Shown: positions 4,715 to 64,000 of the stretch, one piece after another
How the letters are laid out: each line of letters begins with the position of its first letter
Numbering within the stretch: position 1 is the stretch's first letter
Source of the DNA: a virus
DNA: 64,000 nt
IMG/VR virus record: IMGVR_UViG_3300037553_000311
Coordinates: 1-64,000 of that record
Reading direction: 5' to 3' (one strand)
The notes under the pieces: model-generated
Told to the model about the DNA's origin: nothing
Database searches by the model: none
The model's input: only the letters and a program-made list of their open reading frames with translations
Translations under genes and position numbers: made by a program

Positions 4715-4889
4715 ATTTCCTACCCCTTATAAAATCATGAGTAGGAGATCCCCTATTTCTACCTGTATATCCCTACGTGACCCCCCATATTTGCTATATT
4801 TCGTGTTTGCTACGTGCAGTAATATAGGCGTTCAGAAATGGGTATTTCAGTAAGTATGAAACTTATCTGAAATTAGCAGTATTTGAGAT
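4715..4889 (+). repeat. Repeat element E1 (ctgtatatccctacgtgaccccccatatttgc...aaatgggtattt). Copies at ~9625-9790 (inverted), 12533-12666, 29060-29150 (degenerate), 38680-38850 (palindromic)
   Basis: Direct comparison; 4760-4889 and 12534-12666 are nearly identical. Confidence 0.85.
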
Positions 4890-5287: not shown

Positions 5288-6547
5288 ATGAATATGAAAG
5301 TGAATACTGAAGTAATGAATATCGATGGTAACGATGGGTGCGATTTTGATAAAGCAGCTATAGACTCTAATGATAATGAGCATTTTGATAAAGTAGTTAC
5401 TGACGCTAGTGGTAATACCATATGTGTTGGTACTGTCAGATCAGAAATGACCGATAGTCGTGTGGGTATATCATTAGTGAAGTTTGACACTAACCTTAAT
5501 GTACTAGTTAGAAAGGTATATAATGGTAGTGGTGGTGATAGATTCAGACAAGTAATTACTGATTCCGATAATAATATCATCTGTGTTGGATGGAATCATT
5601 CCGAAGGAGCTAGTAATTGGGATGCACTAGTAGTAAAGTTTGACCCTAACCTTAACATATTAGCTAGGACAGTATATAGTGGGACTGATTTGAGTGAGTT
5701 CCGTGGAGTAACAATTGATGATAATGATAACATCATCTGTATTGGTCATATTGCTTCAGAAGGAGCTGGTGGTTGGGATGCGTTAGTGGTGAAGTTTAAT
5801 AGTGATCTCAATGTGCTAGCTAATAAGATCTATAGTGAGACATATTGGGATGAGTTTTATGCAGTAGCTATTGACTCTAGTGGTAATGTCATCTGCACTG
5901 GTCAGACTCAATCAGGAAGAGCTGGTAGTTGGGATGCTCTAGTAGTCAAGTATGATAGTAATCTCAATGTATTAGCTAAGAAGATGTATGGTGGTATTAA
6001 TTTGGATGAGTTCAGTGCAGTAGCTGCTGACTCTAATGGTAATGACATCTGCACTGGTCAGACTCAATCAGGAAGAGCTGGTAGTTGGGATGCTCTAGTA
6101 GTCAAGTATGATAGTAATCTTAGCATATTAGCTAAGAAGATATATGATGGGGCTGGTAGTGATATATTTCATGGGGTAGTTACAGACTCTAATGATAATA
6201 TTATCTGTGTTGGACGTATCTCAGAAGGATCTGGTAATCGTATCGCACTGATAATGAAATTTGACACTAACCTCAATGTACTGACTAGGTATATCTATAA
6301 TGATACTGATAGCGATTGGTTCTATGGAGTTACCACTGATGATGATGACAATATCATCAGTGTTGGATGGACAAATTCAGGTAGTACGTCAGGAGCTGGT
6401 AATTGGGATGTATTAGTGGACAAGTTTGATAATAACCTTAATATACTAGCTAGTAAAGTATATTGTGTGACTGATGATGATGATGACTTTCACACAGTAG
6501 CTACTGACTCTAGTGGTAATATCATAGGCGTTGGATGTACTATCTAA
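5288..6547 (+). CDS. Beta-propeller repeat protein (about 8 blades of ~51 aa)
   Basis: Repeated F.gV.tDsngNiiCvG.t.seg.g..DalvvKfD.nLn.l..k.y motif; conserved promoter and leader upstream. Confidence 0.85.
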   Translation: MNMKVNTEVMNIDGNDGCDFDKAAIDSNDNEHFDKVVTDASGNTICVGTVRSEMTDSRVGISLVKFDTNLNVLVRKVYNGSGGDRFRQVITDSDNNIICVGWNHSEGASNWDALVVKFDPNLNILARTVYSGTDLSEFRGVTIDDNDNIICIGHIASEGAGGWDALVVKFNSDLNVLANKIYSETYWDEFYAVAIDSSGNVICTGQTQSGRAGSWDALVVKYDSNLNVLAKKMYGGINLDEFSAVAADSNGNDICTGQTQSGRAGSWDALVVKYDSNLSILAKKIYDGAGSDIFHGVVTDSNDNIICVGRISEGSGNRIALIMKFDTNLNVLTRYIYNDTDSDWFYGVTTDDDDNIISVGWTNSGSTSGAGNWDVLVDKFDNNLNILASKVYCVTDDDDDFHTVATDSSGNIIGVGCTI

Positions 6548-9352: not shown

Positions 9353-10049
9353 TAAAATCCTCATCCATAGCATACCTGTAATAGGTATGCTATGGATATC
9401 GTATCTTATACTACCTGATCAGATGACCTCACTCTCAGCAGTAGCAAACATCTTTCACTACTACTCCAAAGTGCATTTATGTAATGGATCTATACGATAC
9501 TAAATCTATGTAGTTTTGCTACTCTAGATGCATCATATATGATAAGTGATAATGTGATATAAATCTACTCTAATTATACTTAGAATATATGCCTAATATG
9601 TTATCCGATCTAGCAAATATCTCAATTTTCAGATAAGTTTCATACTTACTCAAATACCCATTTCTGAACGCCTATAGAACCGTGTGTAGGAAACACGAAA
9701 TATAGCAAATATGGGGGGTCACGTAGGGATATACAGGTAGAAATATGGGGTCTGTCACCCGTGGTTTTATAAGGGGTAGGAAATGTGCTATTTTAGCACT
9801 TTATTTTAGCTGATATATAGCTAATCTAATCAGATATCAGCTACATTTACCATCTGATTCCATACTAAAAATATATACACTCTGAAGAGTAGCAAAAGAT
9901 ATCTGCTCATCTAGATATTATCACCTATCTCATTCACTCGTCATACCTATTAGATCCATTATCGCCTCCAGCATGATTACATGTCATCTATATCATCTGC
10001 GATAGACTTGAACATATCTAACAGTTATCATTAGTATCCATATAGAAAA

Positions 10050-10500
10050 CTACCAGTCACCTTACAGCTACTACTCATATACATTAGTTACCTACAGTAA
10101 TTATATTCATTATCTATCACCTTACAGCTACTACTTATATATCTACATCTACCAGTTACCTATAGTAATTATACGTATATCTGTTATCACTCTTACTACA
10201 GTTACTACTCATATACTACATACAATTACATCTACCAGTTACCTATAGTAATTATACGTATATCTGTTATCACTCTTACTACAGTTACTACTCATATACT
10301 ACATACAATTACATCTACCAGTTACCTACAGTAATTATATTCATATCTATTATCACTATTACTACCTATATATCTACATCTACCAGTCACCTATGGTAAT
10401 TATGATTATATCTATCACCTTACAGCTACTACCTATATATCTACCAGTTACCTACAGTAATTATATCTATTTCTATCAGTCACTCTTACAACTACTACAT
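10050..10500 (+). repeat. Degenerate G-poor tandem repeat (60-83 nt units; near-exact 83-nt duplication at 10148-10313)
   Basis: Recurring ccagttacctayagtaattat and cagytactac motifs. Confidence 0.85.
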
Positions 10501-10645
10501 AAATCTATGATCATCATACATTCACAACATGCTCATTTCTGAGCATGTTGTGATATATTCATATATGTATACCTAGTGAATGAATCGTATAATCATAACT
10601 GTATCCATATCACATGTACTCTGTGTAAATCGACTATATCAAACC

Positions 10646-10805
10646 TACTCATATAGTCATCCAAATCTGTCCTTCTAATTCTATTGCACACTACAGTATA
10701 GTACTACTAGTATCTTTTATATTACTCTACTCATATAATCATCCAAATCTGTCCTTCTAATTCTATTGCACACTACAGTATAGTACTACTAGTATCTTTT
10801 ATATT
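10646..10805 (+). repeat. 81-nt tandem duplication
   Basis: ctactcatat..tcatccaaatctgtccttctaattctattgcacactacagtatagtactactagtatcttttatatt occurs twice. Confidence 0.9.
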
Positions 10806-12813
10806 GATCTATTCATACTTTACACTCTAATTCTAAAAATATAAGCTCTTATTCACCTAACTTTGCTAATTTTTTAATCTTTACCATAGCAACTGTCGTA
10901 ATAGGCTCTCCGTCGTACCGTGTAGTTTGTACTGTATGAACGAGTTACAAATATTAGTTAGTGTGTATCTTAGAATTTCTAATTCTATTCTATTGGGAGA
11001 AGCGAACTTTGATTCGGAGAATTAAAGTCGCTTCGTAACTAATCTTTTATATATAGGCAGTATATGTAAGGTGCTTGTGTTTTTCCATTTTGTGAGATGA
11101 AAAATCAGATTGCTTCCAAAACAAATAACACGCATCGTAACTTATGTTTTTTTTATTCACACTTCTCCACTTAAAAAATATATAAAAAAAAAGGCGGTGG
11201 ATATATAATAGGTAAGACACTAACACTGCTACCACCGCCACCTTGCGACTGGAGGCGAAGCCGCCAGGAGCTAGTGCATAAATGACCAGGTGCTATAATG
11301 ATCGTCTAGTTATTATTTTATCAATCTCAACTCATGTGAAATTACCATTCTTCTAGAGAGTGGTTCTATCTATCATGGTGAGTGATCTATAATCAAAACT
11401 TGCAATTCCAAAAAGTGAATTTTTGAGTAAATTTATCAACTATTGATGAATTTTTCAATTTACAAAACTGCTCAGTCCCACGTTTACCGGACGTAAGCTT
11501 CACGCCCATGTAGCATGGACGTAGTACGAATAATTTCAGCTCACCCCTTGTTCTATCGGGGATGGTACCAAGCACGGTAATACCGAACGTAAGTCAATTG
11601 AACCCAATCTACGTGAAAGTAGATTGGGTTCAATCGTTATAATATCGGTGGTGAGTCATATTATTATCTCTCAATCACTATAGTATCGCTCGTAGTGATA
11701 TGTCTAATTAGGTGATGAGTGATGAACATCTACATATATTGAGATCGCATATCTAATTTTAATATCAAATACCTACTCCGAAATTAGATATATTTAATAA
11801 ATTTGATATAGATATTAGCTAAAAAGTACATATATCCGATGTATCCAATCTACTCTAAATAGACATATATTCAATCTACTCTAAAATTAGATATCAGGTA
11901 ACGGATCAATTAGTATCTAATATATGCCACATGATCTAGTGATTAGTAGAAGGTATCGGATAATACTTGATACCTCCCACTGATCTAGTGATTAGTAGAG
12001 ATACATCAGATACAGCCAGATGTACTTACTGATCTTCGATTTGATGAAATACATACTACGTTCGATGTAGTAGGTGATTAGCTGATTTTACACTCTTCCA
12101 TTCCTCGGGGTATAAGTTTTGCTAAAAATGCTTACGAGCGGTCTCAGAAGCAAATCATACATTTAGTACAGATGTGATTTGTAGTCATAAATCACCAGTG
12201 CTTATATTACCGATACTAGTGATTTTATCGAACCACTTTCCTCAGGGAATATATCACTTATTTTACATATAAATCACCAGCACCTATAGTGTAATGATAA
12301 TTGCAAATACTCTTCCAATCCTCGGGGTAGATACTTTTTTACTCATATCAGATGACCTCACTTTCAACATGAGTAGATATCTTTCGCTACTACTCAAAGT
12401 GCATATATTTTTAGCATAGAATCAGATGGTAAATGTAGCTGATATCTGATTAGATTAGCTAGATATCAGCTAAAATAAAGTGCTAAAAAAGAGGGTCTGT
12501 CACCCGTGGTTTTATAAGGGGTAGGAGAGGTGCTATTTCTACCTGTATATCCCTACGTGACCCCCCATATTTGCTATATTTCGTGTTTCCTACGTGCAGT
12601 AATATAGGCGTTCAGAAATGGGTATTTCAGTAAGTCTGAAACTTATCTGAAATTAGCAGTATTTGAAGATCCGGTAGTATATTCTAAGTATATTTGAGTA
12701 GTATCTGAATATATCTGATAATGAGATAATGTCAGATATAGTAGTGATGATATATGAACTAAACGTATCCATAGCATACCCGTAATAGGTATGCTATGGA
12801 TATCGTGTATGGA

Positions 12814-27273: not shown

Positions 27274-27643
27274 CAATACATTAGTGATTGTACCATTAAC
27301 TATGTCGCTCAATGTTGCATTATATCACCCTCTAGTAATGGATGCTCGTATATCATCTGTATTGACTCCTACAGTACTGATGGTAGAACTGCTATCTATT
27401 ATGTCATTGAGCGACATAACTAATGGTATAATCTAACTACAAATTATCCTCACCTACACATATCACATGTGTAGGTGAGGATGATATCTTTATTTTTTAC
27501 ACTTTAGCATGAGCAAGAGATGTTTGCTCCTACTCAGAGTACATCAGAACCAGTGTACATAGATGTTATTTTTCATACGATCCATTCATATGTATAGGTA
27601 TATAATCGATATGACATTACGCTTTTTTTTAGGAGTATGTATT

Positions 27644-29056
27644 ATGAGTATTAAAAAAATAGTATCTAAAGCATGTATGCATTCATGTCTAGTGAAGAAG
27701 AAATTCACTGAAGCTGTCATCGTAAAAGAGAGAACACTGTATGATGATGGTAGTACATCATCTAGGTTAGCTACATATGTAGATCCTAAGAGATCTTTCT
27801 ACATGACTCAGAAGAGATATCGTGATTATAAGTATAAGATTGAACTAGAGGATATATCTAAGTTAGATAAGTTCACAGTAAAGAATATAGATCTACGAAG
27901 AAAGTTAGCTGAAGTACTAGGTCTACGTCCTGGATATCATAAAGATGCTGTCCTATTTAGATCTCCTTATATATTTGGTGCTGATATTTCAATAGAGTCT
28001 CTAATCAAGATGCACTACATGAATACATTTGAAATAGATATACCACCAACATATGGATTCTTAGATATTGAAACATCGATAGATACAGATGAGATTATGC
28101 TCATATCGTATATAGCAAATGGTACAGTATATTTATGCGTACTAGATCACTTCTTATATAGAGAAGAGACAGATACTAATGGTAATATCAATCGTATCAA
28201 AGTATCAGAAGTAGAGATGAATAATTATCTGCTGAAATCACTAGGTGATTATACTAGTAAGTTAAATCCATCTAAAAAGATACCACAGAATCTCATCTCT
28301 ACTATGAAAGGATTAAAGTATGAGCTTAAAGTATTCACTAATGAGATAGAACTGATAGCATGGACTTTTAAGAATATCCATCATGAGCAAGTAGATATGA
28401 TAGGTATTTGGAATATGGGTTATGATATCCCATATATACTAGATAGGTTGAAATTATTGAAAGTATCATCTGAATCTATTTTCTGTGACCCTACGTTAGA
28501 TGAATCATTCCGTTACGTATCTTATATTGCAGATAAGAATAAGAGGATAGCACATTTCACTCTAAAGTGGGATTACCTACATTGTACTTCTGGTTCTCAA
28601 TTTATAGATAGTATGAGTCTATTTAGTCAGGTACGTAGAACTGCTGGATTTAGAGCAAAATATACACTAGATGCTATACTAGATGAGGAATTAGGTCTAT
28701 CTAAATTACCATTAAAAGATGGTGGTTCTCATGCAGTCAATCAGCGACGTCACTTCATGGATTATACTGTATATAATGCATTCGATAGTATATCATTATA
28801 TCTACTAGAGATGAAGAATAATGATCTATTAGCGATGTCTATTCTTGCTGGTATGACTCCAATATCTAAGTTTGCAGCAGCTGGTATCAAAAGTACCAAT
28901 AGTACTTATCGTCATCATTTAGCTAAAGGTAAGATCTTAGCTAGTGTTAGTAATCTTGATAACTATGTGAAGTTAGATAAGTTATTTAGTAATTGTGGTG
29001 GTCTAGTATTACCTCCGCATAATGTTGAAAATGTAGGGATATGCTTAGATATCTAG
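27644..29056 (+). CDS. Family-B DNA polymerase, N-terminal/3'-5' exonuclease part
   Basis: ExoI FLDIET, ExoII WNMGYDIPYI, YTLD, ExoIII YNAFD, ending with CGGLVLPP (YxGG-like). AGGAG RBS before 27644. Confidence 0.8.
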   Translation: MSIKKIVSKACMHSCLVKKKFTEAVIVKERTLYDDGSTSSRLATYVDPKRSFYMTQKRYRDYKYKIELEDISKLDKFTVKNIDLRRKLAEVLGLRPGYHKDAVLFRSPYIFGADISIESLIKMHYMNTFEIDIPPTYGFLDIETSIDTDEIMLISYIANGTVYLCVLDHFLYREETDTNGNINRIKVSEVEMNNYLLKSLGDYTSKLNPSKKIPQNLISTMKGLKYELKVFTNEIELIAWTFKNIHHEQVDMIGIWNMGYDIPYILDRLKLLKVSSESIFCDPTLDESFRYVSYIADKNKRIAHFTLKWDYLHCTSGSQFIDSMSLFSQVRRTAGFRAKYTLDAILDEELGLSKLPLKDGGSHAVNQRRHFMDYTVYNAFDSISLYLLEMKNNDLLAMSILAGMTPISKFAAAGIKSTNSTYRHHLAKGKILASVSNLDNYVKLDKLFSNCGGLVLPPHNVENVGICLDI

Positions 29057-29163
29057 TACTGTATACTCCTACGTGAAGGTCATATTTAGCCTATTTTAGA
29101 TTCACCACTCCCGATATAATAGGTACTGAGAATGGAGTATATAGATAATTGGAGAATGTCACC

Positions 29164-29463
29164 ATGTCAAATGATACCACTAGTAGTGATAATAAAGTAC
29201 CGACTACACTTTCTTTATACGTGAGTCAGTGTGATTTTAAATCAGCATACCCATGTATCATGCGTACAGCTAATATATCTAGAGATACGTTCACAGGAGT
29301 AGTATATAGTATCGAAGGTAGAGATAGATCATCAATCATAGATTACTATTCTAACCTGATACATCTAAGAGAAAATGCAGTATACTTATGTAGTGAGTAT
29401 CATAATTTCCCAGATTACCTAGAGATGGATGATGTGGTAAGTCAGTACTTATCTACTCAGTGA
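29164..29463 (+). CDS. Family-B DNA polymerase motif A fragment
   Basis: CDFKSAYP...NISRDT matches DxxSLYP...NIS.ET; own GGAG RBS and ATG at 29164. Confidence 0.75.
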   Translation: MSNDTTSSDNKVPTTLSLYVSQCDFKSAYPCIMRTANISRDTFTGVVYSIEGRDRSSIIDYYSNLIHLRENAVYLCSEYHNFPDYLEMDDVVSQYLSTQ

Positions 29464-29538
29464 TTATGCACATATCTTTTTATTCACCAGCATCATACCT
29501 ATAGGTGATAAATGAAAAATTAATTATAAGGTGACATT

Positions 29539-30198
29539 ATGCAGTATGTATTCTTTACAGGACGGAATAGAGTAGGTAAGACAACATTATCTCTAGCATT
29601 ACATCAGTATCTAATTAGTAATGGTAGTGATGTTGAAATAGTATCATTTGCAGAGGCTATGAGGTATGAGATAGTTGAATATTATGGTATCCCATATGAT
29701 GTAATATTTGATAAGAGTATAGATAAGAATACATATATGATCACATTAGGTGATTACCCATATCTAAATGAAGCTGTAGAGTTACATATATCTAGTGGAC
29801 TTACTGATAATGAGGATACATTTAAGTCAACCACATATACATTACGAGAACTACTTATAACACATGGTACTCATATCAGACGTAAAGATGATAATGATTA
29901 TTGGGTGAAGTTATTTTCACATCATGCCATGGTGCTAGCTGAACGTGGAGTAGATATGATGATCGTAGATGATGCTAGATATCAGAATGAATTTGATACT
30001 ATAGCTACATGTGATCTCATATTCTGGTTAGATAATGGATTCACAGGTACGTCAGATCTACCACAAGATAATGTTGTCGCTTGGTATCGTGCAAATAGAG
30101 ATAGATGTATCAGCATGGATATACCTATCCCACTGTCACCGAGTAAATGTGATATCATACTACAAGATGTAATTAAACACATAGGAGATCGTACATGA
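29539..30198 (+). CDS. Deoxynucleoside monophosphate kinase-like P-loop protein
   Basis: GRNRVGKT, SFAEAMR, RELLITHGT..RR, DDARYQNE. Confidence 0.75.
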   Translation: MQYVFFTGRNRVGKTTLSLALHQYLISNGSDVEIVSFAEAMRYEIVEYYGIPYDVIFDKSIDKNTYMITLGDYPYLNEAVELHISSGLTDNEDTFKSTTYTLRELLITHGTHIRRKDDNDYWVKLFSHHAMVLAERGVDMMIVDDARYQNEFDTIATCDLIFWLDNGFTGTSDLPQDNVVAWYRANRDRCISMDIPIPLSPSKCDIILQDVIKHIGDRT

Positions 30199-30758
30199 TA
30201 CATAGTAAGACTACGTTAAACTGTCTCTCAATCGATCTTGGATCTAATCTCGGTTGGGTGAAAAGTCGAATCACATTACAACCTAAGCTCAAGTTAGACG
30301 TGACTGAGCATAATACAATAAATCTAAATAAGCTCACTGATATAGAGATGCGGAATGATTTTAATAATGTGTATCATCGGAACCGTGTCAAGTTGACTAT
30401 CTTAGAAGACATACTAACAAAACTGACTAGTCGTCTTAAATATGATCTATATATAGTGGAAGATGTATTTGCTAATCCATATAGAGTAGCAGCTTTTAAA
30501 TCTCTACTACTGATGATGGATACATTAGAGCGTATAGTTAATATTAAACATGGTAAGAGACTACACACGATAGCACCAATGGCTATCAAAAAGATAGTAG
30601 CTGATATGGGTAATGCTGATAAGATGGCTGTACAAGAAGCATTACTAGCTAATGAAGATATCACTATCAGGAAGCCAGATCTATTAACTGAACATACAAG
30701 TGATGCAATCGGTGTAGCGTACGCCTTCAGTAAAAAGTACCTACTCAATAGTATTTGA
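30195..30758 (+). CDS. ruvC: RuvC-like Holliday junction resolvase
   Basis: LSIDLG, IVEDVF, P..IKK.V...GNADK, H.SDAIGVA. Confidence 0.85.
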   Translation: MIHSKTTLNCLSIDLGSNLGWVKSRITLQPKLKLDVTEHNTINLNKLTDIEMRNDFNNVYHRNRVKLTILEDILTKLTSRLKYDLYIVEDVFANPYRVAAFKSLLLMMDTLERIVNIKHGKRLHTIAPMAIKKIVADMGNADKMAVQEALLANEDITIRKPDLLTEHTSDAIGVAYAFSKKYLLNSI

Positions 30759-30927
30759 CATATATCACTACTCACTACCGCATACGTGGTAGTGAGTAGT
30801 GTCTTTGTTTATTCACTCTGAAGTAGTAGTAAAAGATATCTACTCATCTCAAGTATATATTACTACAGTAGATCATATTAAACGATAGCGTGAAATAGTT
30901 CACTCATATACATCATCAGGAGATACC

Positions 30928-32235
30928 ATGATTAACATATCTAAATTAGACACCAGCGAGATCTCATCAGCTAAACTATTAGCAAGTATATGCTACCAGC
31001 CATCATTATCAGTAGCTAAACAAAAGTGTCAAAGTGTCCCACTCAAGAGAGGATTATATAACACTGGACATCATACTACGTTTGAGAGTACCCATCATAC
31101 ATTTATGATAGAATCTATACCGGTGTCACTAGTCACATTTGGACTACATATGAATCACCCATTTTATAACTCACTACAACGGAGTGGTAGATATTGTACA
31201 GACATGTTCAATTCAGATACACTACTACCTCACGTCAGTGAATTTATAGATAAGTATCTCATAGGGAATGACTTTAATGTAGCTGATAGATTGAGACTGA
31301 TAACATATGTATTCTCAGGAGTAAAGTTATATCAAGACTATATCGATATCATCACAGAAGATGCAATCTTAGCTATAGTTAAAGAACGTCCTAACTTACC
31401 TAGTAAAGTTATCAATATGCAAGCTACTAGATTTGCTCAAGAGCAATTACGCTGTGTCATATCTACAATTACCCCAACAGGATTAGCTCATACATTATCT
31501 ACTATCGCATTAGCTAGTATGTATAATGTATCTTGGAATCAACCATTGAGAGATATCCTATTTGATATGGTAAAGTTATCTACTACAGGTACAGAGTTAG
31601 AATTTATACTAGATGGAGTTCGACCTATAAATCATTGGGTACCTACTATGTCCACTCATGATGTATCTTTAGCTATATCACCTATCGTATCTAACGTGTC
31701 TGGTAAGCATCCAAATATACTTAACACTATACCAGATAAGCTCAATCTATCACCATATGATCCACATACTTCAGATACATTAGATGATAACATCACTACA
31801 GAGATATCTACATCTATCATGAGTTATGGACAAGATCAACGTCATCGTACCATAGAGAGATCTAATCCTCATATCACATGTAGTTTATATATACCACCAT
31901 TACTAAGGAGACATAGTGAATTAGTAGCTAGATATAGTGACATCAAACAGAACTGGATAAGTATGACTAGACACTATGGTCTTGATAAACTCATCCACTT
32001 CATTCCATATGGATCAATGGTGAAATATACTGAACGAGCTACTACTAAAGCATTTCATCATAAGACAGCTAAACGATTATGTCTTAAATCTCAAGAAGAG
32101 ATATATGAAGTAGCTAGGTTAAGTAATATAGCTAATGGAACTAATCTATCACCACCATGCATCTCTCGCAGATGTCGTGAGACGGTAACATGTGGTCGTG
32201 TACGTGATTCTGATGTCAGTAGAGATTTGATATAA
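30928..32235 (+). CDS. thyX: ThyX-like FAD-dependent thymidylate synthase (long, two-domain form)
   Basis: GHHTTFE, QRSGRY, QDQRHR, RLC..SQ.EI motifs. Confidence 0.65.
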   Translation: MINISKLDTSEISSAKLLASICYQPSLSVAKQKCQSVPLKRGLYNTGHHTTFESTHHTFMIESIPVSLVTFGLHMNHPFYNSLQRSGRYCTDMFNSDTLLPHVSEFIDKYLIGNDFNVADRLRLITYVFSGVKLYQDYIDIITEDAILAIVKERPNLPSKVINMQATRFAQEQLRCVISTITPTGLAHTLSTIALASMYNVSWNQPLRDILFDMVKLSTTGTELEFILDGVRPINHWVPTMSTHDVSLAISPIVSNVSGKHPNILNTIPDKLNLSPYDPHTSDTLDDNITTEISTSIMSYGQDQRHRTIERSNPHITCSLYIPPLLRRHSELVARYSDIKQNWISMTRHYGLDKLIHFIPYGSMVKYTERATTKAFHHKTAKRLCLKSQEEIYEVARLSNIANGTNLSPPCISRRCRETVTCGRVRDSDVSRDLI

Positions 32236-38529: not shown

Positions 38530-39202
38530 GTAGTACATGTAGTAGATACTAAACTCCATAGCATACCTATCATGGGTATGCTATGGAGGTCTTAGTGTAC
38601 TTGATTGATAGATACAGCTTACGCCTTATACTAGTGATGGTAGTGATACTCGAATATAGCAAATATGCACTTTGAAACTCAAATCGTTATAGAACCGCAT
38701 GTAGTGATTTGAAAATAGGCTAAAAAGAGCTTCCACGTATATCCCTACGTGAAGGTCATATTTGGGCATATTTGGATTTACTACGTACGGTTCTATAGTG
38801 GGTGAAAATGGTGTATTTGAGTTACTTATTATCTTATCTGAAATATCCTGGGATTTTGAGATAGATGATCTATTAGTAGCTTATTATTTCAGATACTATC
38901 TACTATTGAAACTGTGTAATAATATTATGCTAGTATATATAGTAGTAATCTAAATCAGTCACTATTTCAGGTATATATCACTATAGTAGAAGGTATCAGA
39001 TAATACTTGATACCTCCCACTGATCTTTGATTAGTAGAAGATATCAGATAATACTTGATACCTCCCACTGATCTAGCGATTAGTAGAAGGTATCAGATAT
39101 AACCAGATGTACTTACTGATCTTAGATGAGATAACGTATAGATTAATCTATACGTACACTAAAAGTCAGATATCTGACATGATAGCCTTAGGAGGGTAAG
39201 TT

Positions 39203-40339
39203 ATGAAAGTGAGTAATGAAGTAATGAATATCGATGGTAATGATGGATGTGATTTTGATGAGTTCTACGCAGTAGCTACTGACTCTAGTGGTAATACCAT
39301 ATGTGTTGGCGTTATCAAAACAGAAGGAGCTGGTGGTGATGATGCATTAGTAGTCAAGTATGATACTAATCTTAATGTACTAGCTAGGAAAATATATGGT
39401 GGTATTAATTTGGATGAGTTCAGTGGGGTAGTTATAGATTCCAATAACAACATCATATGTGTTGGGAATACTTATAGTGAAGATAGTGGTATTGATGAAG
39501 CACTAGTAGTCAAGTTCGATCCTAACCTTGACATAATTGCTAAGAAAGTATACGGTGGTAGTGGTATTGATAGGTTCTATGAAGTAGTTACTGATGATAA
39601 TGATAATATCATATGTGTTGGACGTACTGTTTCAGAAGGATCTGGTGATTATGATGCACTAGTAGTAAAGTTTGATAATGACCTTAACATACTAGCTAAG
39701 AGGATATATGATGGAGCTGGTAATTACCGATTCTATGAAGTAGCTACTGACTCTAATGGTAATATCATATGTGCTGGACGTACTCAAACAGAAGGAGCTG
39801 ATTCTGATGTTGCTCTAGTAGTCAAGTACGATCCTAACCTTGACATAATTGCTAAGAAAATATATGATGGTAGTGGTGCTGATGCATTTTATACAGTAGC
39901 TACTGACTCTAATGATAATATCATATGTATTGGATGGACTGTCTCAGAAGAAACTGATTCTGATGAAGCACTAGTAGTCAAGTTCGATACTAACCTTAAC
40001 ATATTGACTAAGAAGATATATGATGGTATTGATTGGTTCAATGGAGTAGCTATAGACTCTAATGATAATATCATATGTGTTGGACGTACTGCTTCAGGTA
40101 GTACGTCAGGAACTGGTAACCATGACACATTAGTAGTCAAGTTCGATCCTAACCTTGACATAATTACTAAGAAATTACATAATGATGCAATTATTGATAG
40201 GTTCTATGAAGTAGTTACTGATGATAATGATAATATTATCTGTGTTGGACGTACTGTTTCAGAAGGATCTGGTAGTTTCGATGCATCAGTAGTCAAATTT
40301 GATCCTAATCTTAATATGCTAGTTAATAAGATACAGTAG
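39203..40339 (+). CDS. Beta-propeller repeat protein (about 7 blades)
   Basis: Same blade repeat and the same MKVSNEVMNIDGNDG N-terminus. Confidence 0.85.
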   Translation: MKVSNEVMNIDGNDGCDFDEFYAVATDSSGNTICVGVIKTEGAGGDDALVVKYDTNLNVLARKIYGGINLDEFSGVVIDSNNNIICVGNTYSEDSGIDEALVVKFDPNLDIIAKKVYGGSGIDRFYEVVTDDNDNIICVGRTVSEGSGDYDALVVKFDNDLNILAKRIYDGAGNYRFYEVATDSNGNIICAGRTQTEGADSDVALVVKYDPNLDIIAKKIYDGSGADAFYTVATDSNDNIICIGWTVSEETDSDEALVVKFDTNLNILTKKIYDGIDWFNGVAIDSNDNIICVGRTASGSTSGTGNHDTLVVKFDPNLDIITKKLHNDAIIDRFYEVVTDDNDNIICVGRTVSEGSGSFDASVVKFDPNLNMLVNKIQ

Positions 40340-44722: not shown

Positions 44723-46582
44723 ATGTTCATATTGCAGAATAATATCCCACTGACTAAAGTTGGGTCAGTATATAAGTATAATTTAGGATTTGAGACATTA
44801 GTAGTAACTGATCCATCATTAGTGATTGATAGATTGAACTACAGAATAGATCGGACTATCGGTCTGAGTCGTAGTTATGATCACATGATGAACCTTAATA
44901 TATCAGCTAAGGTATCTATCACATCCGATCCATTTGAATATACATGTACTAGTGATACTACCAGATTATTAGCTATCGAACAGATAGTCTCTCATGATGG
45001 TGAGATCATAGATATCGCATCTAACGTAGGTACTGTAGAGTATCACACATATAGTATCAAGTCGAATGATATATATGGTAGTGAAATAGCTGGAGCACTT
45101 ATCAATGTCACTGTACCAGAAGACGCTACAGATATCATATTGACAGTGACATCTACTCTGACTAATGATACAGGTACTACTGAACATGTCACATATCTAT
45201 CTACAGGTGAGGTAGCTACTGGTACTGGAGGTACTGGGGCTACTGGAGCTACTGGAGCTACTGGAGCCGATGGGAGAGATGGAATAGATGGAATAGATGG
45301 AATAGATGGAATAGATGGAGTCGATGGGAGAGATGGAGTCGATGGTGCTGATGGTGCTGATGGAATAGATGGAATAGGTGGAGTGGGAGCATTACCACCG
45401 ACTGCACCATTACTAGATATCCCATTCAAGATTAATATGGATACTTCCCAAGGTAATATAGTAACTAATTATATCAGAAATTCACCAGCTACTCACATTG
45501 ACCGGTATGGTATGATGATAAGTAGTGATGTAAATACACCAAGATTTACTAAAAATGGGATGATGCGTGAAGGTGTCGGTACTAACTATTTTCTTAATAG
45601 TAACTCACTTAACGCATATACACTAACTAACGCTACTCAGTCAATCGGCTATGATAGTGTATTAGCTATAGATGTAACTAACGTAGATAAAGACGGACAA
45701 TCACCTTGGACATTAGATGCTGATACTACATTACCTATCAGTGATCATACTGATGTGACATATAGTGTCAGATTACGTACAAGTGATCCATTATCTGTAG
45801 AGATGCAGATATTAGATGATGCCGGTGTAGTACTAGCTTCATCTATAATCACTACTAGTGATACGACCGAATTATATACAGTATCAGCAGATATATCTAA
45901 TATATCATCAGGTACTGTATCAGTGAAGCTCATTCCAGATAGTAATTCATCAGTATCTCGATTAGTAGTAGCTACATCTCAAGTGGAACCATTACCATTT
46001 GTATCTAGTTTCATACTTACTACTGATACACACATGACTCGTGAAATGGAATCGATCGTTATCAGTTATGATGATAATTTCCCTAGTAATGATCATGGTG
46101 TCACTGTACTCCTCGATGTATATATTAGAGGTACGTTACCATCACTAGATTCATGCTTCACATCAGGTAGTCTATCTATGTATATATCAGATCATGGTAG
46201 TAGTGTTCCTGTAGCTAAAGCTGCCATATCGGAAACTGATAGTACAGGTACATATCCTATTAATAATAAACTTAGAATGGGAGTAGTATATGATCCAGAT
46301 AATAATCTACTACAGTTATATGTAGATGGTGTAATTGTCGATACTACAAACATCACAGGTGATACTGATGTACCATTAGGTTCTGGGATGTCTCTTAGTG
46401 ATTTCTTTACTCAGGTCTATGATGGTAGTTATACTGATGATACATCTCCAGTACTATTACAGGGTAATGTTGACTTTCAATCAGCATTACTTATGATAGG
46501 TTCAGAGTTTACATTTATGGAATTTAGTAACTTAAGAGTAATATCTGAAGTATGTAGTGAAGTACAGATGATGAATTTATAA
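44723..46582 (+). CDS. Tail-fibre-like protein with collagen-like Gly-X-Y repeat and C-terminal lectin/LamG-like region
   Basis: (GAT)n(GID)n run at ~45215-45390; RNSPATHID...PRF...EGVGTNY; LYVDGV. Confidence 0.65.
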   Translation: MFILQNNIPLTKVGSVYKYNLGFETLVVTDPSLVIDRLNYRIDRTIGLSRSYDHMMNLNISAKVSITSDPFEYTCTSDTTRLLAIEQIVSHDGEIIDIASNVGTVEYHTYSIKSNDIYGSEIAGALINVTVPEDATDIILTVTSTLTNDTGTTEHVTYLSTGEVATGTGGTGATGATGATGADGRDGIDGIDGIDGIDGVDGRDGVDGADGADGIDGIGGVGALPPTAPLLDIPFKINMDTSQGNIVTNYIRNSPATHIDRYGMMISSDVNTPRFTKNGMMREGVGTNYFLNSNSLNAYTLTNATQSIGYDSVLAIDVTNVDKDGQSPWTLDADTTLPISDHTDVTYSVRLRTSDPLSVEMQILDDAGVVLASSIITTSDTTELYTVSADISNISSGTVSVKLIPDSNSSVSRLVVATSQVEPLPFVSSFILTTDTHMTREMESIVISYDDNFPSNDHGVTVLLDVYIRGTLPSLDSCFTSGSLSMYISDHGSSVPVAKAAISETDSTGTYPINNKLRMGVVYDPDNNLLQLYVDGVIVDTTNITGDTDVPLGSGMSLSDFFTQVYDGSYTDDTSPVLLQGNVDFQSALLMIGSEFTFMEFSNLRVISEVCSEVQMMNL

Positions 46583-57146: not shown

Positions 57147-58262
57147 ATGAATATGAAAGTAAGTAATGAAGTAATTATTACCGATGGATGTGATTTCGAT
57201 AAAGCAGCTATAGACACCGCTGGTAATATCATCTGCATTGGCACTGTCAGATCGGAAGAATCTGATACTAACTTTCCACTAATAGTTAAGTATGATGTCA
57301 ATGGTGATATCATACTTAAGAAGATGTATTATGATATTAATTTAGATAAGATCCGTGGAGTAACCACTGATTCTAATGGAGACATCATCTGCATTGGCAC
57401 TGTCAGATCGGAAGAATCTGATACTAAATATCCATTAATAGTTAAGTTTGATACTAATCTTAATGTACTAGCTAAGATGATATGTGATACTGGTGATGAT
57501 TGGTTCAATAAAGTTACCACAGATGCTAATGACAATATCATCTTAGCTGGATGTGCTCTCTCAGAAGAAATTAGTGGTATTGATGCATTAGTGGTTAAGT
57601 ATGACCCTAATCTCAATATACTAGCTAGAAAAACATATGGCGATGGTGGTGAGGAATTTAACCAAGTAACCACTGATTCTAGTGGTAATGTCATATGTGT
57701 TGGATGGACAAATTCAGAAAGAATTGGTACTAATGCCGATGCATTAGTGGTCAAATTTGACAATGACCTTAACATAATTACTAGTAATACATATGATGAT
57801 ACCGATATTGATTGGTTCTATGGTGTAGCTATAGATTCCAATAACAACATCATATGTGTTGGACATACTAGCTCAGGTAGTACGTCAGGAGCTGATTGTT
57901 ATGATGCATTAGTGGTTAAGTATGACACTAATCTTAACATGCTAGCTGATACGATATATAGTGGTATTGGTAATGATTGGTTCGATGCAGTAATCACTGA
58001 TTCTAGTGGTAATGTCATATGTATTGGATGTACTGATTCAGGTAGTACGTCAGCAGCTGGTAATTATGACATGCTAGTGTCGAAGTATGACGCTGATCTC
58101 AATGTATTAGATAGTAATACATATGGTGATACTAGTAGTGATGAATTATATGCAGTAGCTACTAATCATAACGGTGATATAGTATGTGTTGGAGATACAT
58201 TATCAGATAGTACGTCAGGACCTAGTAATTATGTTATACGAGTAGTAAAGTTCACTAGCTGA
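57147..58262 (+). CDS. Beta-propeller repeat protein (about 7 blades)
   Basis: Blade repeats and shared leader. Confidence 0.85.
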   Translation: MNMKVSNEVIITDGCDFDKAAIDTAGNIICIGTVRSEESDTNFPLIVKYDVNGDIILKKMYYDINLDKIRGVTTDSNGDIICIGTVRSEESDTKYPLIVKFDTNLNVLAKMICDTGDDWFNKVTTDANDNIILAGCALSEEISGIDALVVKYDPNLNILARKTYGDGGEEFNQVTTDSSGNVICVGWTNSERIGTNADALVVKFDNDLNIITSNTYDDTDIDWFYGVAIDSNNNIICVGHTSSGSTSGADCYDALVVKYDTNLNMLADTIYSGIGNDWFDAVITDSSGNVICIGCTDSGSTSAAGNYDMLVSKYDADLNVLDSNTYGDTSSDELYAVATNHNGDIVCVGDTLSDSTSGPSNYVIRVVKFTS

Positions 58263-58584
58263 GATCATACATGATCTAAACATTCCCATAGCATACCGAT
58301 ATCAGGTATGCTATGGGTTTATTATTTTTTATGCACTCTGAACATGAGTAGATATCTTTACTTACTCTCAAGAGTGAATCCATCTAATATACTACTATTT
58401 CAAGTATATATCATTATAGTAGAAGGTATCAGCTACTACTTGATACCTACCACTGATCTTCGATTAGTAGTAAGTATCAGATACTACTTTGATGTACATC
58501 TACTAATCTAGCGAATATATAGCGTATAGAATAATCTATACGTACACTAAACGTCAGATATATGACACGATACCTTAGGAGGGT

Positions 58585-59289
58585 ATGAATATGGAAGTAA
58601 GTAATGAAGTAATGAATATATATGGTAATGATGGAGATCAATTCGATAAAGCAGCTATAGACACCGCTGGTAATATCATCTGCATTGGACATGTTAAATC
58701 AGAAGGATCTGATACTAAATATCCATTAGTAGTTAAGTATGATACTAATCTTAATGTACTATTTAAGAAGATGTATTATGATATTAATTTGGATGAGTTC
58801 CGTGGAGTAACTACGGATTCTAGTGGTAATATCATCTGCATTGGATGGACTGTCTCAGAAGAAACTGATTCTGATGTTGCAGTGGTAGTCAAGTTCGATA
58901 CTAATCTTAACATAATCGCTAAGAGAATATATGGTGATAGTGGTGGTGATTGGTTCAATGGAGTAGCTACTGACTCTAGTGGTAATGTCATCTGTGTTGG
59001 ACATACTACCCCAGGTAGTACGTCAGGAGCTGGTAGTTATGATGCATTAGTAGTCAAGTTCGATACTAATCTTAACATAATCGCTAAGAGAATATATAGT
59101 GATAGTGGAGATAGTGGTGATGAATTTGACCAAGTAACTACTGACTCTAATGATAATGTCATCTGTGTTGGATGGACTGATTCAGAAGGAGCTGGTAGTT
59201 CTGAATATCCTAATCGTGTAGATGCATTAATAGTGAAGTATGATAGTGATCTTGATATACATTGGACGTACTCATTCAGAAGTATCTAG
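58585..59289 (+). CDS. Beta-propeller repeat protein, short form (about 4 blades)
   Basis: Blade repeats and shared leader. Confidence 0.82.
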   Translation: MNMEVSNEVMNIYGNDGDQFDKAAIDTAGNIICIGHVKSEGSDTKYPLVVKYDTNLNVLFKKMYYDINLDEFRGVTTDSSGNIICIGWTVSEETDSDVAVVVKFDTNLNIIAKRIYGDSGGDWFNGVATDSSGNVICVGHTTPGSTSGAGSYDALVVKFDTNLNIIAKRIYSDSGDSGDEFDQVTTDSNDNVICVGWTDSEGAGSSEYPNRVDALIVKYDSDLDIHWTYSFRSI

Positions 59290-59584
59290 TAGTGATGATA
59301 CATGATCTAAACATACCCATAGCATACCTGATATCGGTATGCTATGGGAATATTATTTTTATGCACTCTGAACATGAGCAAACATCTTTACCTACTCTCA
59401 AGAGTGAATCCATCTAATATACTACTATCTCAAGTATATATTACTATAGTAGAGATGCATCAGATAATACTTGATACATCTCTACTGATCTTCGATTAGT
59501 AGAAGGTATCAGATAATACTTGATACCTCCTACTAGATCAGATAGCGCATCATATTAATAATCACACATAGGAGATACCACATC

Positions 59585-63554: not shown

Positions 63555-64000
63555 ATGAATATGAAAGTGAGTAATGAAGTAATGAATATCTATGGTAACG
63601 ATGGAGATCAATTCGATAAAGTAGCGATAGATTCTAGTGGTAATGTCATCTGTGCTGGTACTATCGGATCAGAAGGGACTGGTAGTCATGTGGGTATATT
63701 AATAATCAAGTATGATATTAACCTTAATGTACTAGTTAGAAAGGTATATGGTGGTAGTGGTGGTGATAGGTTCGGACAAGTAACTACGGACTCTAATAAT
63801 AACGTCATCTGTGTTGGATATACACTATCAGGAAGAGCTGGTGATTATGATACACTAGTAGTGAAGTTTGATAGTGATCTTAATCTACTAGCTAGGAAGA
63901 CATATGGTGGTATTATTTTGGATGAGTTCAGTGCAGTAGCTACTGACTCTAATGATAATGTCATCTGTGCTGGGTATACTACTAGTGAAGATAATTGTTA
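63555..64000 (+). CDS. Beta-propeller repeat protein, 5' part (runs off the window)
   Basis: Leader block, then MNMKVSNEVMNIYGNDGDQFDKVAIDSSGNVIC... Confidence 0.85.
   Translation, partial: MNMKVSNEVMNIYGNDGDQFDKVAIDSSGNVICAGTIGSEGTGSHVGILIIKYDINLNVLVRKVYGGSGGDRFGQVTTDSNNNVICVGYTLSGRAGDYDTLVVKFDSDLNLLARKTYGGIILDEFSAVATDSNDNVICAGYTTSEDNC

Follow-up and report, generated by a model that had tools for sequence, protein, structure and literature searches.

A conserved break before motif A in the DNA polymerase genes of phiKZ-like giant phages, with a decayed repeat element in the junction of one of them

In the phage studied here, the N part of a phiKZ-type family B DNA polymerase (DNAP-N) is encoded by two adjacent genes that are separated immediately before motif A, and sequence comparison places this break far back in time, as the common property of a whole clade of relatives. 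We consider it highly probable that the split is an old feature of a deep clade, that its products N1 and N2 together with the C part of the enzyme (DNAP-C) function as three separate chains, and that repeat element E1 arrived later as an insertion in the junction. The window, i.e., the whole stretch of DNA that was analyzed, covers positions 1 to 64,000 of an IMG/VR virus record of 92.7 kb (35% G+C), which is about 32% complete according to CheckV and originates from an uncultured marine giant phage. A megablast search with the polymerase region gave no match to cultured phages; tblastn matched the DNAP-N1 gene, at 26 to 29% identity, with genes annotated as "DNA polymerase" in phiKZ-like giant phages that infect Pseudomonas, Erwinia, Salmonella, Vibrio, and others.

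Anatomy of the divided polymerase gene

DNAP-N1 (ORF1; positions 27644 to 29056, plus strand) encodes a protein of 470 aa that comprises the N-terminal domain and the 3'-5' exonuclease part of a family B polymerase. Its start is likely the ATG at 27644, 8 nt ahead of which an AGGAG is located (27631 to 27635), and the resulting product is the same as that of the gene callers (P0001). ORF1 matches PF03104 above the cut-off (E = 1.9e-6) and positions 7 to 445 of phrog_3011 (E = 9.7e-76). The exonuclease motifs Exo I (DxE), Exo II (Nx3FD-like), and Exo III (Yx3D) are present as D141-I-E143, N257...D261, and Y377-N-A-F-D381, and the residues D141/E143, N257/D261, and Y377/D381 are invariant across 32 homologues; a search of the PDB sequences with an N1 profile found no match. 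The protein terminates with ...CGGLVLPPHNVENVGICLDI (VGICLDI*) at a TAG codon (29054 to 29056). A reading of ...ICLDI as a duplicate of the beginning of motif A was rejected, and chimallivirus homologues have about 10 more residues at this place.

DNAP-N2 (ORF2; 29164 to 29463, plus strand) lies in a different frame and encodes only 99 aa, namely, motif A (D24-F-K-S-A-Y-P30, encoded at 29233 to 29253) and the following helices. The motif agrees with the family B pattern DxxSLYPS, which contains a catalytic Asp. It is preceded on the same strand by a ribosome-binding site of its own, GGAG at 29151 to 29154, 9 nt ahead of the ATG at 29164. The intergenic gap between the two genes (29057 to 29163, plus strand) measures 107 nt; in relatives, the corresponding value is mostly between -4 and 14 nt. 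An earlier note on this DNA had already described the end of ORF1 at GICLDI*, the separate frame, GGAG and ATG of ORF2, and the length of the gap, all of which were confirmed.

ORF2 matches positions 482 to 563 of phrog_3011 (E = 1.1e-9), and this family of 576 positions is therewith matched colinearly from end to end, but by two ORFs. N1 and N2 are likewise colinear with the single genes of the Vibrio phages pVa-21 (586 aa) and vB_pir03 (575 aa), which bears out the proposal that an already divided phiKZ-type polymerase has undergone a further split yielding a tiny subunit with the motif A aspartate. A word search with the single ORF2 sequence retrieved nothing except ORF2 itself. An N2 profile aligned with motif A of solved PolB structures, i.e., residues 400 to 424 of the Thermococcus enzyme and 406 to 433 of RB69, the E values for Thermococcus, Pyrococcus, and RB69 ranging from 3e-4 to 1e-2, and 17 to 18 columns are invariant among the seven to eight aligned N2 orthologues. 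N2 of the window starts 11 residues upstream of the starts used by its relatives.

Upstream, the polymerase operon is bordered by a terminator-like hairpin with a 19-pair stem followed by a T run (27443 to 27485, plus strand). N2 is followed on the plus strand by a dNMP kinase-like gene (29539 to 30198; PF21448, E = 9.9e-7), a syntenic neighbor that is also present in the related loci L010, L011, L089, and L091, and by a RuvC-like gene (30195 to 30758; weak match to PF02075, E = 0.0028), after which a second terminator-like hairpin is found (30766 to 30801). Farther downstream, an early-promoter-like box at 30855 precedes a gene for a ThyX-type thymidylate synthase at 30928 to 32235 (PF02511, E = 4e-8). 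A scan for sigma-70 promoters returned fewer sites than shuffled sequences, and the sigma-70 model is uninformative for phages of this type. Elsewhere in the window, gene families of 156-nt repeat units with patchwork identity occupy positions 5288 to 6547, 39203 to 40339, 57147 to 59300, and 63555 to 64000, and a run of 9-nt repeats (GGAGCTACT, GGAATAGAT, and similar) at 45235 to 45405 encodes a collagen-like Gly-X-Y stretch.

Age and spread of the split

A search of 5.8 billion proteins with ORF1 yielded 47 clusters. The closest 32 (39 to 100% identical) have lengths of 447 to 471 aa; the 15 more distant ones measure 539 to 598 aa and continue past the break to include motif A. Alignment of the 32 short forms showed one common stop position for 29 of them, following ...GG.VL.P....VG.xL.x, the exceptions being P0020 and P0032, which are a few residues longer, and P0030 and P0031, which end one residue earlier. 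At least 31 clusters with 39 to 59% identity end within one to three codons of the ORF1 stop. In a quick maximum-likelihood tree, 31 short forms constitute one clade (SH-aLRT 100), in which the window protein is nested beside P0002; one more short form, P0032, pairs with a fused form.

The junctions themselves were compared in the loci L010/L090, L087, L088, L089, L091, and L011, with those of P0002 (59%), P0003, P0013, and P0018 left out. The gap between N1 and N2 is 3 nt in L010/L090, where both genes share the frame, and 11 nt in L088 and 14 nt in both L087 and L089, where the frame differs; in L091, the two genes overlap by 4 nt, again in different frames. Sequences resembling Shine-Dalgarno motifs are found ahead of the N2 starts in related loci, and genes for the dNMP kinase and the RuvC-like protein usually follow. 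L011 has a gap of 1,920 nt with a 180-aa ORF and a 415-aa ORF that matches an endonuclease PHROG. In this locus (L011:5347-7158), the break is the same and its occupant is a different one: the 180-aa ORF is Cys-rich, and the 415-aa ORF corresponds to phrog_681 (E = 4e-7).

Small proteins of the N2 type are widespread. A profile of seven N2 orthologues was run against 1.84 billion representatives and retrieved 289 proteins with E values up to 0.001. Among the best 150 of these 289 matches, 61 are no longer than 180 aa (about 44 of them with a recognizable motif A), and 74 represent the C-terminal ends of fused proteins of 530 to 923 aa. The short N2-like proteins begin either just before motif A, as in the window, or before the GG motif. 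About ten of the profile matches begin exactly at MYPS and look like second exons that were called as genes.

Two further observations concern the same part of the gene. A second kind of split, located about 25 codons earlier and thus before the GG motif, is present at L092:6251-6273, where the small subunit has 125 aa; about a dozen clusters of the profile search belong to this earlier-split type, e.g., P0050, P0068, and P0071. Group I introns (RF00028, 51 to 92 bits) reside in or just after the same N part of the polymerase in five distant chimallivirus-type loci (L060:5328-5679 and 5833-6166; L037:6372-6693; L056:5462-5790; L028:5305-5675; L057:5354-5701), and the intron of L056 starts just after ...AHLGD, right before motif A.

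Repeat element E1 in the junction

The gap of the window phage contains a degenerate copy of the TACGTG element E1, as the earlier note had recognized. The copy is a full-length one (29059 to 29150, plus strand). It matches positions 1 to 93 of a profile that was made from the other six copies (nhmmer, E = 2.2e-10), is 66 to 71% identical to single copies, and occupies the space between the N1 stop codon and the N2 ribosome-binding site almost exactly. Its 5' part is conserved, including the 20-mer CCTACGTGAAGGTCATATTT at 29068 to 29087, which recurs at 38744 to 38763, as claimed before (0.02 matches expected by chance), and at a third exact site, 80281 to 80300 of the whole record; the second CTACGT box has been lost.

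Beside the gap copy, the 92.7-kb record holds six clear copies of this element of about 92 to 118 nt. Type A (93 to 98% identity) is represented at 4763 to 4862 (plus; nhmmer E = 2.4e-30), at 9637 to 9736 (minus; E = 6.2e-30), at 12543 to 12642 (plus; E = 2.7e-30), relative to which the preceding copy is inverted, and from about 65158 of the record. Type B, the one closest to the gap copy, is found at 38735 to 38834 (plus; E = 3.8e-24) and, with 99% identity, at 80272 to 80356 of the whole record. All six are situated in long spacers, in most cases downstream of a terminator and upstream of a repeated early-promoter-like box. None of about 165 related loci contains E1, and its 16-mer core occurs in one IMG/VR contig only, an unrelated one with 44% GC that is a chance match; on these comparisons, E1 can be regarded as a lineage-specific repeat. 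Searches for Rfam families and tRNAs in E1 were negative, as was a search of the gap for a terminator-like hairpin, and its candidacy as a structured RNA was rejected (consensus energy of only -3.6 kcal/mol, few compensatory pairs).

Some features of the other E1 copies deserve a separate record. About 3.4 kb of the window (9353 to 12813) are devoid of ORFs of at least 80 aa and are flanked by the oppositely oriented copies at 9637 to 9736 (minus) and 12543 to 12642 (plus). A 39-nt segment that adjoins E1 on its 5' side is found in either orientation with respect to the element, i.e., it is flipped between window positions 12500 to 12538 and 9755 to 9793, and is also found at 65101 to 65139 of the whole record. 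A weak, inverted partial copy (38687 to 38739, minus) abuts the type B copy at 38735 to 38834, which results in a palindrome-like pair, and TTTAGCCTATTTT of the gap copy is an exact 13-nt match to this inverted arm. A further type B-like copy (...GGATTCACTACGTACGG...) that is absent from the 92.7-kb record was seen in the same metagenomes (Logan X2 record 3, X3 record 6, and X8 record 10, aligning at window positions 29057 to 29090) and presumably stems from the missing genome part or from a close relative.

Does the gap copy have a task of its own? It might, e.g., bind a protein or act as a promoter inside the operon and thereby make the expression of N2 independent of that of N1, a role that we regard as improbable. 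The proximity of its 5' part to the other copies, including the exact 20-mer, the 11-nt inverted repeat formed by its ends (91% complementary), and the position of the six other copies in long regulatory spacers are compatible with such a role. On the other side, the copy is decayed outside its 5' part and has lost the second CTACGT box, a conserved RNA structure is lacking, and the other copies are situated between terminators and promoters, not inside operons. There is a slim chance that E1, as a small piece of mobile or regulatory DNA, is able to settle in junctions of a few bases and that it would act as an internal control point of the polymerase operon. If so, the supply of the 99-residue subunit with the catalytic aspartate, and hence the polymerase activity, would be set independently of the exonuclease subunit. 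We infer instead that E1 is a tolerated insertion and not a functional part of the gene.

The earlier note had held E1 responsible for the split. Such an origin would agree with the almost exact fit of E1 into the space between stop codon and ribosome-binding site and with the N2 start 11 codons upstream of that in relatives, but it is contradicted by these relatives themselves, which at 39 to 59% identity lack E1 and have their stop codons at most one to three codons away from the same position, and by the monophyly of the short forms, inside which the window protein is nested. The split therefore predates E1, since relatives end at the same position without the element, and a breaking of a continuous DNAP-N gene by the E1 insertion in the window phage is very unlikely. 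As far as sequence comparison can tell, E1 did not cause the split but entered a junction that was already intergenic. Routine termination of homologues at this position without E1 hence speaks against the causal part of the former claim, and it strengthens the part according to which the tiny subunit is a separate one.

A single chain restored across the gap is equally far-fetched, whether through ribosomal bypass as in T4 gene 60 or through splicing at the level of RNA or protein; a spliced or bypassed insert had also been considered earlier. A hop from GAT (29048 to 29050) to GAT (29188 to 29190) would give GICLD-NKVPTT, which aligns closely with fused homologues at the junction. It would have to span about 137 nt, however, the last sense codon before the TAG is ATC with no in-frame ATH landing codon before motif A, and the folding of 29030 to 29200 is no better than that of shuffled sequences (z = 0.46). 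Group I introns are present in the same region of distant relatives, in which the RF00028 test was positive, but the window lacks any RF00028 match at the gathering score and the region from 28700 to 29600 lacks one even at an E value of 10. In a split intein, the first half would be expected to carry an Int-N of about 100 aa and the second half an Int-C of about 35 to 50 aa, but neither end carries an extension of this size: ORF1 ends where fused homologues continue, and ORF2 has just 11 extra residues. Moreover, N2 possesses its own Shine-Dalgarno sequence and ATG, like its counterparts in related loci.

Least credible of all is a decaying pseudogene or an assembly artefact, to which the stop codon and the frame change within what is one gene in cultured phiKZ-like phages might point, but both ORFs have intact catalytic motifs that are maintained across the deep clade, and independent contigs from several studies carry an identical sequence free of variants. 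In Logan contigs from four marine metagenome runs, the N1/N2 junction is covered without a single difference, indel, or joint; X2 record 2 spans 28788 to 29500, X3 record 5 spans the entire stretch, and X8 record 9 spans 29006 to 29156, run X8 being one that was not flagged as a possible source of the DNA. A search for sequencing runs that contain this stretch yielded none with RNA. The confirmation of the assembly from other data, for which the earlier note had called, is thereby available, and the assembly error that might have undone its reading is excluded because independent metagenome contigs carry the identical junction.

A putative three-chain polymerase and its known counterparts

Taken together, these results are best accommodated by an old split with a late insertion. 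The phage would be a member of a deep clade, among the phiKZ-like (chimallivirus-type) giant phages, in which the DNAP-N gene (gp82 in PhiKZ) was presumably split once, long ago, within the loop that connects the GG motif with motif A. The products would be N1 with about 450 to 470 aa (N-terminal domain and exonuclease) and N2 with about 85 to 100 aa (the motif A strand with the catalytic Asp and helices), each apparently with a translation start of its own. N2 begins, in most relatives, no more than 14 nt from the N1 stop or overlaps it, and we infer a translational coupling of the two genes because these junctions are so tight. In the window phage, the 92-nt E1 copy would then have inserted itself behind the N1 stop codon and ahead of the N2 ribosome-binding site, so that a formerly tiny junction grew to 107 nt, and would have decayed afterwards; N2 retains a good GGAG-N9-ATG. 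The N2 start 11 residues upstream would also fit a replacement of the old start region by E1, as opposed to a clean insertion.

Most likely, N1, N2, and the separately encoded DNAP-C assemble unjoined into one family B polymerase. A search with PF00136 detected no polymerase domain in the 92.7-kb fragment, and tblastn with the DNAP-C sequences of two relatives found no match in it; the DNAP-C gene of the window phage, on which motif B (fingers) and motif C (DTD) would be expected, is thus located outside the fragment, and only part of the three-piece enzyme is visible in this genome. In the genome of L011, DNAP-C is a separate, distant gene. There, N1 occupies L011:4001-5350, N2 occupies L011:7271-7564, and DNAP-C is encoded at G001:142369-144372. 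An AlphaFold model of the fused homologue P0034 (mean pLDDT of 85.6) is confidently folded from residue 1 to about 430 and again in the terminal helices, and the stretch from GG to motif A has a pLDDT of 31 to 54. The model would agree with a break-tolerant linker and with a tail that depends on DNAP-C, and the position of the break appears, from a reading of the alignment, to coincide with this low-pLDDT linker.

Family B polymerases made from two separately translated genes are known from the split gene 43 (43A/43B) of T4-related Aeromonas phages and from the PolB of Methanothermobacter. They resemble the polymerase discussed here in being encoded by two genes without an intein and without splicing, and they differ in the position of the split and in the lineage. 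To our knowledge, neither comprises a piece as small as about 90 to 100 aa.

Foreign DNA at the break of an essential replication gene is a feature that the locus shares with the T4 gene 60 bypass, with homing-endonuclease cassettes that split phage genes, and with the split-intein "fractured genes" of Dassa et al. (2009; PMC2677866). Unlike in these descriptions of fractured genes and of T4 gene 60, the window has neither split-intein halves nor a pair of take-off and landing codons at the stop codon. The inserts vary among relatives while the break is constant and are therefore later occupants of the break. A constant break that contains nothing, a repeat, or an endonuclease cassette, with group I introns nearby, would mark a recurrent landing site of selfish DNA before motif A. 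For annotation, it follows that the small gene should be named a polymerase subunit and that the exonuclease gene should not be flagged as truncated.

The closest counterpart is the PhiKZ polymerase, a stable 1:1 complex of DNAP-N (gp82, 638 aa) with DNAP-C (gp50, 731 aa) (Basu et al., 2026, preprint; PMC13648687). Its polymerase site combines D562 of DNAP-N (motif A) with D426 of DNAP-C (motif C), the polymerase-dead variant was made by mutating the motif A residue D562, and DNAP-N contributes its last 50 residues to a palm-insertion domain that consists mostly of DNAP-C (PMC13648687). By position, N2 would correspond to the motif A strand and the tail of this DNAP-N and, going by the PhiKZ structure, may dock mainly on DNAP-C. 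The papers retrieved, PMC13648687 among them, are confined to the two-gene form and do not contain a three-piece one. Both polymerases belong to the same family and share the first split, with an N part that comprises the N-terminal domain, the exonuclease, and motif A and a C part that is encoded by a distant gene; in contrast to PhiKZ, DNAP-N is here cut again just before motif A, the Asp resides on a 99-aa chain, and three chains would result. An active site assembled from three loose chains, one of which has fewer than 100 residues, would extend the two-chain PhiKZ enzyme solved in 2026 and offer a test case from nature for the extent to which a family B polymerase can be divided without losing its ability to assemble.
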